From Nioella sp. (GTDB lineage: Bacteria; Pseudomonadota; Alphaproteobacteria; Rhodobacterales; Rhodobacteraceae), in contig NZ_OZ244111.1 of assembly GCF_965215655.1 (NCBI RefSeq), forward strand, positions 517,963-581,962: a stretch of 64,000 bases of DNA, in the 5' to 3' direction. Each line of letters opens with the position of its first letter. Position 1 is the first letter of the stretch. Positions 51,744 to 63,332 of the stretch are shown piece after piece. Position numbers and translations under genes: made by a program. The notes under the pieces are model-generated. The model was not told where the DNA came from. It did no database searches and saw only the letters and a list, made by a program, of their open reading frames with translations.

Positions 51744-51881
51744 TCGGCAAGGCCCCGGATTCGTCCGGGGCTCTGCTTTTGTCCGAAAGGACATTCACGA
51801 CGGGCACCTACGGGGGCCTATAACATCAGGGTTTCGCGGCATCCGCCGCATGACCCGCACAGAAAACGGAAGACAGTAAAC
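51744..51881 (+). ncRNA. candidate ribosomal-protein leader RNA upstream of rplB
   Basis: Four hairpins with UUCG (51752-51771), GAAA (51780-51793), UACG (51803-51818) and a bulged stem (51829-51856). Confidence 0.6.
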
Positions 51882-54125: not shown

Positions 54126-54539
54126 ATGCTGCAACCGAAGCGCACAAAATTCCGCAAACAGCACAAGGGCCGGATCCGCGGTGAAGCGAAGGGCGGGTCT
54201 GACCTGAACTTCGGCACCTACGGCCTGAAGGCACTGCAACCCGAACGGGTCACCGCCCGTCAGATCGAAGCCGCCCGTCGGGCCATGACGCGTCACATGA
54301 AGCGTCAGGGTCGTGTCTGGATCCGGATTTTCCCCGATCTGCCCGTGACCTCGAAGCCCGTCGAAGTTCGTATGGGTAAAGGTAAAGGTTCGGTCGATTA
54401 CTGGGCCTGCAAGGTCAAGCCCGGCCGGATCATGTTCGAGATCGACGGCGTGTCCGAGCCGATCGCCCGCGAGGCCCTGCGCCTGGCCGCTATGAAGCTG
54501 CCGATCAAGACCCGCACCGTGGTCCGCGAAGATTGGTAA
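54126..54539 (+). CDS. rplP: 50S ribosomal protein L16
   Basis: [28 protein letters not shown]. Confidence 0.99.
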
Positions 54540-54541
54540 TC

Positions 54542-54564
54542 GGTGGGCAAACTGCCCACCCTAC
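54542..54564 (-). repeat. GTAG-type REP element
   Basis: Minus strand GTAG-GGTGGGCA-GTT-TGCCCACC: GTAG tetranucleotide plus an 8-bp perfect stem. Confidence 0.7.
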
Positions 54565-54570
54565 GACATC

Positions 54571-54609
54571 AAAACCCCCGTCGAGCTGATCGGCGGGGGT
54601 TTTTCTTTT
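54571..54609. terminator. intrinsic terminator after rplP (likely bidirectional)
   Basis: AAAACCCCCGTCGA-5 nt-TCGGCGGGGGTTTT followed by TCTTTT. Confidence 0.88.
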
Positions 54610-54730
54610 GCTGCGATCCGGTTTGGGCGAGCCGTTTGACCCTGAGCGGGGCCAAGGCGGTTCGAACCGCCTTCCAACCCGATTGCGAAATCAGGTCAAA
54701 GCGCCTTCGAAGGCGCTTCCCCGCCCGGTC

Positions 54731-55516
54731 TTACCGGTCTCCGAACATATCCCCCAGGCCACCGAGAACCGATCCCTCGCCCTTGCTGCCACCGGGCATC
54801 GCGGCGCGCATGATGCGGTCGGCGAGGCGAGAGAAAGGCAGGCTTTGCAGCCAGACGGTGCCGGGGCCTTTCAGGGTCGCCAGGAAAAGCCCCTCGCCCC
54901 CGAAGACCATGGATTTCAGGTTCCCGGCCCGTTCGATGTCATATCCGACGCTTCCATCCATCGCCGCCAGACAGCCGGTATCGACCCGCAGGGTTTCGCC
55001 CGCCGCAAGCTCGCGCTTGATGACAGTGCCGCCCACATGGATGAAGGCCATCCCGTCGCCATTCAGGCGCTGAAGGATAAAGCCCTCGCCCCCAAAGAAC
55101 CCGACGCCCAGTTTCTTCTGAAAGGCGATGCCCGTGGTGGTGCCGAAAGCGGCGCAGAGGAAGGCGTCCTTCTGGCAGATCAGTTCGCCACCGATCTCGG
55201 CCATGTTGACCGGGATGATCTTGCCGGGATAGGGGGCGGCGAAGGCCACGCGCTTCTTGCCCTGACCGTTATTGGTGAAATGGGTGAGGAAGATGGATTC
55301 CCCTGTCAGCACTCGTTTGCCGACATTGAGCAGTGAGTTCATGATCCCGCCCGAGGGCCGCGCGCCATCGCCCATGCGGCTTTCGAAATCGATGCCGTCC
55401 TCAAGGTAGTTCATGGCACCCGCCTCGGCGATGACTTTCTCTCCGGGATCAAGCTCTACCTCGACGATCTGCATGTCGTCGCCGAAAAGCTCGTAGTCAA
55501 CCTCATGGCATTGCAT
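54731..55516 (-). CDS. TIGR00266 / AIM24 family protein
   Basis: [77 protein letters not shown]. Confidence 0.9.
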
Positions 55517-55707
55517 CGGAAATGTCCTTTCTGTTCTGGAGGCGTGAATCCCCGCCCAAATGACGCGTGTCCTAACAAGGGGAAAGATCGGGGTTCCGGG
55601 CACAACGGTCAAGAAGCTGCGCAGAAATCCTCTGGCGCAGCACACCTATAGGGAGAATCCCGAAACCGCGCTAAGCTCCACGTCATCCAACAACAGGGAG
55701 AACGGCA

Positions 55708-56523
55708 ATGTGCGATATCTGTGTGATGAACGCGGTGAAGGAACGGATGCTGTCCCGCCGCGGTTTCTTCAAGGCCACGGCTGGTGCGGGGGCCGCGGCG
55801 GCCATCGGGGCGTCAACGACGCTGCCTGCCATGGCCGCCGGGCACGGGGCGATTGAGGATCTGACCCATGCTCTGCATCACGACTTCCCGACCTGGGGCG
55901 GCGCGCCCGGCTTTGCCATGGAGCAGGAGTTCAATTTCTCCGAACACGGGTTCAACCTTTTCCAGCTGCATATCGCCGAACATACCGGCACCCATATCGA
56001 TGCGCCGCTGCATTTCTCGGCTGACGGGCTGTCGGTCGATGAAATCCCGGTGGGCAACCTGATCGCGCCGCTCTGCGTGATCGACATCGCCGCCCGCGCG
56101 GCGGAGGATGCGGATACGACCGTGACACCCGACGATCTGCGCGCCTGGATCGCGGCCAATGGCGACATCCCAGACAATGCCTGCGTGGCCATGTATTCGG
56201 GCTGGGGGGCCAAGGTGGACACTGACGGTTTCCGCAATTTCGATGGAGAGATGCAGCATTATCCCGGTTTTCATGTGGAAGCGGCGCAGATGCTGATGGA
56301 GGAGACCGGCGCAAGCTCCATCGCGGTGGATACTTTGTCGCTCGACCCTGGCAACTCGCAGGATTTCGCCACGCATTACGCCTGGCTGCCCTCGGGTCGT
56401 TTCGGGATCGAGAATATCGCCAATCTGGACCGGCTGCCCGCGTCCGGCGCGACGATCTTCATCGGCGCACCCAAGTTCCGGGGCGGCACCGGCGGACCTG
56501 CGCGTATCCTGGCGATGGTCTGA
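55708..56523 (+). CDS. Tat-exported cyclase / kynurenine formamidase-like metal hydrolase
   Basis: Twin-arginine SRRGFFK; EHTGTHIDAPLH metal motif; IENIANL; GGPARI. Confidence 0.9.
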   Translation: MCDICVMNAVKERMLSRRGFFKATAGAGAAAAIGASTTLPAMAAGHGAIEDLTHALHHDFPTWGGAPGFAMEQEFNFSEHGFNLFQLHIAEHTGTHIDAPLHFSADGLSVDEIPVGNLIAPLCVIDIAARAAEDADTTVTPDDLRAWIAANGDIPDNACVAMYSGWGAKVDTDGFRNFDGEMQHYPGFHVEAAQMLMEETGASSIAVDTLSLDPGNSQDFATHYAWLPSGRFGIENIANLDRLPASGATIFIGAPKFRGGTGGPARILAMV

Positions 56524-56561
56524 TCATGCTCCTGCGCGCCTGCTGGCCGGGCGCGCGGGGC

Positions 56562-57182
56562 TTACTCCCACCTATAGTTGAAACTGATCGAGATGCGTTC
56601 CTCCTCGGCCATGTTCATCGGTACCTCGTGGCGCAGCCAGCTTTCCCAAAGCAGCACGTCGCCGACATCGGGCTTGACGTAGATGAAGGTCTTCAGCTCC
56701 TCCCGCGCGCCTTTCTTTCGGGCCGGGGCGGCCATCATCCGGCCTGATCGCGGGTCTTCCAGTTTCAGCGCGCTGGCACCCTCGGGCATCGCCACATAGG
56801 TTGTGCCGGAAATGACCGAATGCGGGTGCAGGTGGCTGGAATGCATGCCGCCCTCGGGCAGGATGTTGATCCAGAGGTCCTCCAGCACCAGCTTGCGGCT
56901 GTCGAGGTCGAATTCCAGATCCTCGGCAAAGGCCGCCACATGCTGATCCAGCACCTTCACGAGGTCCGCGAAGATCGGAAAGCGCCAGGGCAGGTCAGTG
57001 AGCGAGGCGTAGGAGGTATAGCCGGGATAGCCGTTTGCCTCGCACCAGTCCTGCCCCGCCTCGTCATCCTCTGCGATCACGATGCAGGAATTGTCCAGCT
57101 CCTGCGGGTCGATTTCAGGGCCGAACTCCGACAGGCGGGCGCGGTATAGGCGGGTCACGAAGAGGGATGATATCTGGGCCAT
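56562..57182 (-). CDS. TIGR02466 family putative 2OG-Fe(II) oxygenase
   Basis: WINIL..GG.HSSHLHPHSVISGTTYV, G.VLLWESWLRHEV, RISISFN. Confidence 0.88.
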   Translation of the reverse strand: MAQISSLFVTRLYRARLSEFGPEIDPQELDNSCIVIAEDDEAGQDWCEANGYPGYTSYASLTDLPWRFPIFADLVKVLDQHVAAFAEDLEFDLDSRKLVLEDLWINILPEGGMHSSHLHPHSVISGTTYVAMPEGASALKLEDPRSGRMMAAPARKKGAREELKTFIYVKPDVGDVLLWESWLRHEVPMNMAEEERISISFNYRWE

Positions 57183-57260
57183 GCGCGTGCTATTACCCCA
57201 AGGCGCGCCGCCACGCGAGAGCCATCGCAGCCTTATGGTGCAGGTTTTTCAATCTAGCCC

Positions 57261-57289
57261 TTGCCCCCCAAGCCCAACCCCCCTATAGA
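57261..57289 (+). promoter_or_regulatory. putative rpmC/spc promoter
   Basis: TTGCCC-17 bp-TATAGA. Confidence 0.65.
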
Positions 57290-57407
57290 GCGGCATCGCA
57301 CGCTTCCCCGGGTTCGCCCGGGGATTCGTCGTTTGTCATTCATCCACCAGGTCAACGGGTGACCCATCACGGGGCTCGCTGGTGTTTTGAGAGAAGGAAA
57401 AAGGCGC

Positions 57408-57614
57408 ATGAACGCCACCGAACTGCGTGACAAGACCCCGGATCAGCTCCGGGAAGAGCTCGTCAATCTGAAGAAAGAATCGTTCAACCTGCGCTTTCAG
57501 CAGGCCACCGGCCAGCTGGAAAACACCGCGCGTATGCGCCAGGTCCGTCGCGACACTGCCCGCATCATGACGATCCTGAACGAAAAAGCAGCCGCCGCTG
57601 CGTCGGCCGAGTAA
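57408..57614 (+). CDS. rpmC: 50S ribosomal protein L29
   Basis: [33 protein letters not shown]. Confidence 0.98.
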
Positions 57615-57628
57615 GAGGAGCCTGATAG

Positions 57629-57859
57629 ATGCCCAAACGTATTCTGACCGGCACCGTTACGTCCGACAAGAACGACCAGACCGTCACCGTGTCTGTCGAG
57701 CGCCGCTTCAAGCACCCCGTGCTGCAGAAGACCATCCGTAAGTCCAAGAAGTACCGGGCTCACGATGCCAACAACACTTTCAAAACCGGCGACACCGTCC
57801 GTATCCAGGAATGTGCACCGGTTTCGAAGTCGAAACGCTGGGAAGTGATCGCGAACTAA
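57629..57859 (+). CDS. rpsQ: 30S ribosomal protein S17
   Basis: [39 protein letters not shown]. Confidence 0.99.
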
Positions 57860-63026: not shown

Positions 63027-63107
63027 GAGGTAAGAAATGCCCGCGTATGCGGTTGCATGCAAGGGCTTGCCGAAATCAAAAAGATCGGTATTCTGCGCCT
63101 CGTTCAA

Positions 63108-63257
63108 GCAGGGAGAATCCGGCCTCGTGCCGGTGCCGAAGGAGCAACCGCCCCGGTAAACTCTCAGGCGCCAGGACCTGCAGGAACAACGAAACTCTGG
63201 AGAGAGGCGCGGGATGCGTCCGCCGAAGGGATAACGATCTCAGGCGAAAGGACAGAG
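63108..63257 (+). ncRNA. tandem glycine riboswitch
   Basis: Two aptamers, each GGAGA...CCGAAG...CTCAGG (63108-63181 and 63195-63257), upstream of gcvT. Confidence 0.95.
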
Positions 63258-63332
63258 GGGGCATCGTGACATGCGGATTGCGCATGTTTTTGCGATGCCG
63301 GGCCAGCCCCGGTCGAGGAAAGGGGAGGCCGC

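Follow-up and report, generated by a model that had tools for sequence, protein, structure and literature searches.

Several 2-oxoglutarate oxygenases hydroxylate components of the translation machinery. In bacteria, PPHD of Pseudomonas putida hydroxylates Pro54 of EF-Tu (structure 4IW3), and RoxA/YcfD of Escherichia coli, which belongs to the ROX JmjC family (PF08007), hydroxylates Arg81 of the ribosomal protein uL16. NO66 and MINA53 are ribosomal histidyl hydroxylases, and OGFOD1 and Tpa1 hydroxylate uS12. Some oxygenases are also joined to modules that handle polypeptides: collagen prolyl 4-hydroxylase (P4H) has a tetratricopeptide repeat (TPR)-like peptide-binding domain and a PDI chaperone subunit, and AspH combines TPR with an oxygenase domain. 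The large TIGR02466/PF13759 family, which occurs in marine bacteria and viruses, is represented by two crystal structures, and no substrate is known for it. Here we analyse a member of this family encoded in a stretch of 64,000 nucleotides from Nioella sp., a member of the Rhodobacteraceae (contig NZ_OZ244111.1, positions 517,963 to 581,962). This stretch is called the window below. The gene lies between rplP (uL16) and rpmC (uL29), in the gap separating two parts of the ribosomal protein cluster.

On balance, we favour the view that the enzyme is an old, conserved and probably protein-directed hydroxylase, the founding resident of an islet at an operon break, where it was inserted once and then inherited vertically. 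The substrate itself cannot be read from the locus. The preliminary description of this DNA had reasoned that, if the linkage between TIGR02466 and rpmC were conserved, the enzyme might modify a ribosomal protein, the rRNA or a translation factor. As shown below, the linkage holds throughout the family and there are hints of a protein substrate, but none of these hints points to the ribosome.

An orthologue is present in 188 of 301 Rhodobacteraceae genera, each represented by one genome, and none was found at E ≤ 1e-30 in the remaining 113. Linkage was scored in the 12-15 kb around the gene, which counted as linked if rplP and rpmC stood on its two sides or if it lay beside the one of them that was in reach. 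On this basis, the oxygenase occupies the rplP-rpmC gap in all genomes of the same genus and in 14 of 17 other genera. A further sample of genera gave 39 of 40, hence 53 of 57 for the other genera combined. The named Rhodobacteraceae loci behave in the same way (77 of 80 linked, in Ruegeria, Leisingera, Shimia, Roseovarius, Phaeobacter and others), and the nearest named orthologues are those of Nioella aestuarii and N. ostreopsis (96%) and N. nitratireducens (89%). The length of the islets varies between 0.87 kb and over 7 kb, and when all their open reading frames (ORFs) were clustered, the oxygenase was the sole gene common to islets across genera. A conserved partner gene was sought in the same clustering and rejected, the only other shared ORFs being antisense shadows. 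In one genus, the linked oxygenase gene contains an in-frame TAG (L053:3773-4390, genome G035, 85% complete), which marks either a pseudogene or an assembly error.

By the gene trees, this linkage arose once. Of 19 linked copies in a maximum-likelihood tree, 18 fall into a well-supported clade, with unlinked family members and other families branching below it. In a gene tree of 99 sequences, all 61 linked copies stand under one ancestor node, and the only truly unlinked copies inside the linked clade (G010 and G302, both Rhodobacteraceae) are counted as relocations out of the gap. All of the linkage traces to a single insertion followed by vertical inheritance, so that the synteny amounts to one evolutionary event and gives no sign of repeated selection for linkage. 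Elsewhere the arrangement does not recur. The ribosomal cluster was found within 7-8 kb of none of the orthologues, 40-74% identical, taken from about 16 other alphaproteobacterial families (0/20 and 0/13, together 0/33), and among 69 immediate neighbours outside the Rhodobacteraceae, each Pfam family occurs at most twice. Thus, the linkage survey suggested by the preliminary description found conservation within the family, but as the trace of one insertion and without recurrence in other families.

The junction itself was open beforehand. In every related locus inspected, rplP is followed by a terminator-like hairpin. This holds also for islet-free family members, where rplP and rpmC are about 100-230 bp apart, and some islet-free genomes also have the rpmC leader. 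In a tree of three ribosomal proteins, a single deep clade unites the islet-free genomes with the carriers of the most compact islets (L137 and L139). The rplP-rpmC gap is a general landing pad for unrelated cargo and was open before the insertion. The position of the oxygenase derives from a single ancient insertion, made where the operon break is permissive, and therefore speaks only weakly for a ribosomal target. The linked copies lie on either strand (91 on the ribosomal strand, 45 on the opposite one), and cargo has been inserted on either side of the oxygenase. Tight same-strand co-transcription with rplP was also considered and rejected, as the distance to rplP is within 260 nt for only 20 of the 88 same-strand copies, each of them behind the hairpin.

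The compact loci L137 and L139 suggest how the islet began. In both, rplP is followed by a hairpin with a short T-run, and about 20 nt further on comes the ATG of the oxygenase, then a promoter and leader, and rpmC. Since these 20 nt leave no room for a promoter of its own, the oxygenase would be transcribed there by read-through from the S10 unit. In the history that we propose, the variable islet, bounded by the rplP terminator and the rpmC promoter and leader, would have been founded by the oxygenase, the only resident that is constant. The oxygenase would have arrived by a single insertion, most likely in the compact same-strand form (rplP, terminator, oxygenase, promoter/leader, rpmC), and this ancestral form may have been expressed by the same read-through. 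Vertical inheritance would have followed, with other genes added on both sides and the oxygenase flipped in some lineages. In Nioella, the oxygenase would have been inverted, the AIM24 gene gained within the genus, and the cyclase added last. No sigma-70 consensus promoter was detected by the scanner for the Nioella oxygenase, and the region between its start and the -35 element of rpmC is poorly conserved within the genus.

The cargo found around the oxygenase is diverse. AIM24 occurs in Nioella loci only, and the PF04199 cyclase only in this genome and in N. aestuarii; the cyclase is the youngest cargo, gained very recently. Other islets hold a dimethylsulfoniopropionate (DMSP) lyase, a peptidoglycan-binding protein, a TetR regulator, an NYN RNase, an alpha/beta hydrolase, a delta carbonic anhydrase, a DUF3179 protein, an HI0933-like flavoprotein or a pyridoxal phosphate (PLP) enzyme. 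The DMSP lyase, of the cupin type (PF16867), lies between rplP and the oxygenase in one genus (L044:5585-6253); the NYN RNase, the delta carbonic anhydrase or the TetR regulator takes this place in other genera. A translation theme among these genes was looked for and rejected, none being present.

What the enzyme does is better approached from the protein. The gene is intact and is the only TIGR02466 copy in the genome, a single contig of 4.14 Mb. The match to TIGR02466 reaches 301 bits for a cut-off of 62.5 and covers residues 6-205 on model positions 2-200 of 201; the C-terminal catalytic half matches PF13759 (2OG-FeII_Oxy_5) with 121 bits for a gathering score of 27. The only second Pfam match is PF13640, below threshold (16.9 bits for a cut-off of 27, E 0.013), and no match to PF08007 (JmjC_2) was found even at E ≤ 10. 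The AlphaFold model (pLDDT 93) is a double-stranded beta-helix. A structure search returned 141 PDB representatives at Z of at least 8, and among the matches listed, every one with a characterised function is a 2-oxoglutarate oxygenase. Among characterised proteins, the highest scores belong to P. putida P4H bound to EF-Tu (Z 15.9) and the Trichoplax and Dictyostelium prolyl hydroxylases (PHDs, 15.7), followed by a viral collagen P4H (15.2), PHD2 (14.7), OGFOD1 (14.3) and Tpa1 (13.6).

The motifs are strongly conserved. Residues H117, H119, P120, H185 and R196 do not vary among 34 orthologues or in the TPR-fused paralogues described below. R196-I-S198 (RxS) lies 11 residues past H185, with R196 invariant and S198 present in at least 90% of sequences; these residues are predicted to bind the C5 carboxylate of 2-oxoglutarate. 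The canonical HxD/E...H triad is absent: the carboxylate position is occupied by an invariant histidine (H117-L-H119...H185, the ligands being assigned by motif position only). The same replacement of the Asp/Glu iron ligand by an invariant histidine is seen across the whole PF13759 family, which makes it a candidate for an unusual 3-His site in a 2-oxoglutarate oxygenase. The N-terminal half has conserved motifs of its own (D40, G43, W46 and GYTSY at 54-58).

Relatives fused to other domains bear on the substrate. Paralogues of about 490-520 residues carry N-terminal TPR and a C-terminal PF13759 domain that keeps HxHP...H...RxS (L030:307-1881 and L031:1480-2949). A true SecB-TIGR02466 fusion, found in a search restricted to longer proteins, consists of SecB (residues 16-143), an Ala/Pro-rich linker and a full-length oxygenase. 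It occurs on 14 contigs of an alphaproteobacterial lineage and falls into four clusters, of which one comes from NCBI; an example is L251:6001-7128, on a metagenome contig (proteins P0007-P0010). The SecB fusion suggests a polypeptide substrate. As TPR and SecB are both peptide-binding modules, a protein substrate is favoured, with no bearing on ribosomes. We infer that the enzyme most likely hydroxylates a side chain of a protein or peptide and that it depends on 2-oxoglutarate.

Several observations weigh against this interpretation. The structural ranking is shallow, with the small-molecule oxygenases AsqJ, SnoK and AviO1 at Z 13-14, hence the fold does not settle the class of substrate. 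The HxH...H arrangement is atypical for 2-oxoglutarate oxygenases, and the chemistry could differ. Of the fused relatives, those with TPR are only distantly paralogous (24-30% identity), and those with SecB belong to a single lineage. Finally, retention of the gene in the gap in more than 90% of genera could reflect selection for co-expression with ribosomal genes.

The alternative that survives best, although we hold it to be rather unlikely, is that of a small-molecule or nucleic-acid oxygenase, or of a 3-His dioxygenase that does not use 2-oxoglutarate, acting on a metabolite that many marine bacteria share, in which case the position of the gene would have no functional meaning. Sites with three histidines are typical of cupin dioxygenases that act on small molecules, and many small-molecule oxygenases lie within 2-3 Z units of the best structural matches. 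The gene stands alone, without a conserved partner in any lineage, and members of the family occur widely in marine bacteria, cyanophages and phycodnaviruses (PMC10598087, PMC4508852), as would suit such an activity. However, the best structural matches, like the weak match to PF13640, are to protein prolyl hydroxylases, the fusion partners bind peptides and none is metabolic, and the arginine of the RxS motif for the C5 carboxylate of 2-oxoglutarate is invariant.

Hydroxylation of a translation component (uL16, uL29, uS17, uS12, EF-Tu or rRNA), with the position kept in order to couple expression to ribosome synthesis, seems to us unlikely. It would explain why the gene stays in the gap despite heavy turnover around it and why the compact loci are transcribable only through S10 read-through, and the nearest characterised folds do include an EF-Tu prolyl hydroxylase and two uS12 hydroxylases. 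Yet the linkage has a single origin and is absent from the orthologues of other families, one third of the linked copies lie on the opposite strand, a terminator always intervenes, two lineages have relocated the gene, and 113 of 301 genera showed no orthologue at E ≤ 1e-30. In two other alphaproteobacterial families (f147 and f213), the orthologue directly adjoins ychF (L102:8679-10478 and L250:5643-6776), with pth also beside it in the first (L102), a point that could be counted for a translation target. This adjacency was rejected as a translation signal, as it is absent in the same-family loci L245, L248, L240, L242 and L249; moreover, with about 16 independent contexts, chance alone predicts as many as the two translation-linked ones seen here (estimated P ~0.37 at 8% per context).

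No PF13640 protein scores above the cut-off in this genome, and a close YcfD is also missing, both of which would be compatible with a translation target. Following up the proposal to look for ycfD, we found one PF08007 protein, the only one of the genome and outside the window (L002:988-2274, G000:C1, 428 residues). It matches human NO66/MINA53 with E ~1e-32 (5.6e-33) and E. coli YcfD/RoxA with E 3.4e-4 only. By sequence, it is a bacterial ROX-family member resembling NO66/MINA53, remote from YcfD, so the role of an L16 arginine hydroxylase is neither filled nor freed. uL16 itself has Arg82 within VRMGKGKG (codon 54369).

A stronger version, in which TIGR02466 would be a new class of 3-His protein hydroxylases whose Rhodobacteraceae enzyme, expressed by S10 read-through, hydroxylates a ribosomal protein or EF-Tu, is distinctly unlikely; abundant marine bacteria would then bear on their translation machinery a mark sensitive to oxygen or 2-oxoglutarate, and so, by way of the phage homologues, would infected cyanobacteria.

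The features of the locus are collected in Table 1. Gene identities come from the ORF listing and from Pfam and NCBIfam profile scans.

Table 1. Features of the rplP-rpmC gap and its borders in the Nioella window (positions of the window).
Feature	Position	Strand	Support
rplP (uL16), closing the S10-type transcription unit on the upstream side	54126-54539	+	PF00252 184.7 bits; TIGR01164 200 bits
Intrinsic-terminator-like hairpin 3' of rplP, 14 pairs and T-run (also delimited as 54571-54603)	54571-54613	+	
AIM24-family gene (TIGR00266/PF01987)	54731-55516	-	Pfam and NCBIfam profile scans; ORF extends to 55645
Putative PF04199 cyclase, kynurenine-formamidase-like, twin-arginine signal SRRGFFK	55708-56523	+	TIGR01409 18.9 bits (cut-off 16.7)
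TIGR02466/PF13759 oxygenase, intact, 206 aa	56562-57182	-	Profile scans
Promoter-like TTGCCC-17-TATAGA for rpmC-rpsQ and downstream genes	57261-57289	+	By eye
Structured 5' leader of rpmC	57300-57407	+	
rpmC (uL29)	57408-57614	+	PF00831 89.9 bits
rpsQ (uS17)	57629-57859	+	PF00366 104 bits

The starts of the oxygenase (57182, minus strand) and of rpmC (57408) are head to head, with 225 bp between them. The promoter-like site in this interval is kept within the genus and has similar counterparts in other genera; it lies below the threshold of the consensus scanner. All elements of the observation in the preliminary description are borne out here. Profile and hairpin scans agree with its account of a junction opened by a terminator and filled with AIM24-like, twin-arginine cyclase and TIGR02466 genes, as does the layout with an oxygenase head to head with the rpmC promoter, and translation returns the uL16 arginine that it reported at residue 82.

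The rpmC leader begins with a 5' hairpin and a U-rich tail (57309-57338). A helix P1 (CACCAG/CUGGUG, 57345-57350 with 57379-57384) then encloses an inner hairpin and is followed by the Shine-Dalgarno site. Compensatory changes are seen in 10 of 13 predicted leader pairs among 38 Rhodobacteraceae sequences, and no Rfam family matches the leader, which is a candidate autoregulatory leader of uL29/uS17. Elsewhere, Rfam families gave weak sub-threshold hits that were rejected, such as sX11 at 54540-54608, which is the rplP terminator. Upstream of rplB, the L2-Alphaproteobacteria ribosomal leader RF03142 was found above its gathering score (51802-51879, 57 bits). Near the end of the window, a match resembling the glycine-GGAnGA riboswitch lies below the gathering score of 110 (63100-63259, 67.5 bits, E 2e-12).

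More generally, the locus shows the limits of genomic context as a clue to oxygenase function. The fold and the TPR and SecB fusions provide an independent and testable lead toward protein substrates. If a translation target were true, the enzyme would be a new bacterial hydroxylase of the ribosome or EF-Tu, from a family unrelated to RoxA/YcfD and remote in sequence from PPHD. If not, the islet would be a clean example of a landing pad for accessory genes inside one of the most conserved operons known.

Compared with the known systems, the closest proteins are the orthologues of known structure, 3BVC (ISM_01780, Roseovarius nubinhibens) and 2RG4 (Q2CBJ1, Oceanicola granulosus), retrieved by full-length phmmer with E 2e-111 and 3e-110. 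They are about 79% identical to the window oxygenase, and the model superposes on them at 1.4-1.6 Å, with no difference of substance. Both are structural-genomics entries titled “uncharacterized protein”, with a structure but no activity, and no functional study of TIGR02466, PF13759, 3BVC, 2RG4 or IPR012668 was found in the literature, in line with the earlier statement that the family has no assigned substrate. RoxA/YcfD shares with the window oxygenase the fold of bacterial Fe/2-oxoglutarate oxygenases, and the target proposed for the window oxygenase is likewise a ribosomal protein, one encoded beside it; the PF08007 family of RoxA/YcfD is a different one, as had been stated before and as the profile scans agree. 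Collagen P4H and AspH, in which an oxygenase is joined to TPR or to a chaperone, resemble the TPR-PF13759 and SecB-TIGR02466 relatives in architecture, and not the stand-alone enzyme of the window. PPHD, together with the PHD and P4H enzymes of PF13640, differs from the window oxygenase by a low identity (18%) and by HxD in place of HxH; it is nevertheless its nearest characterised fold, aligned over 165 residues at 3.0 Å, and is likewise a stand-alone protein of about 200 residues.

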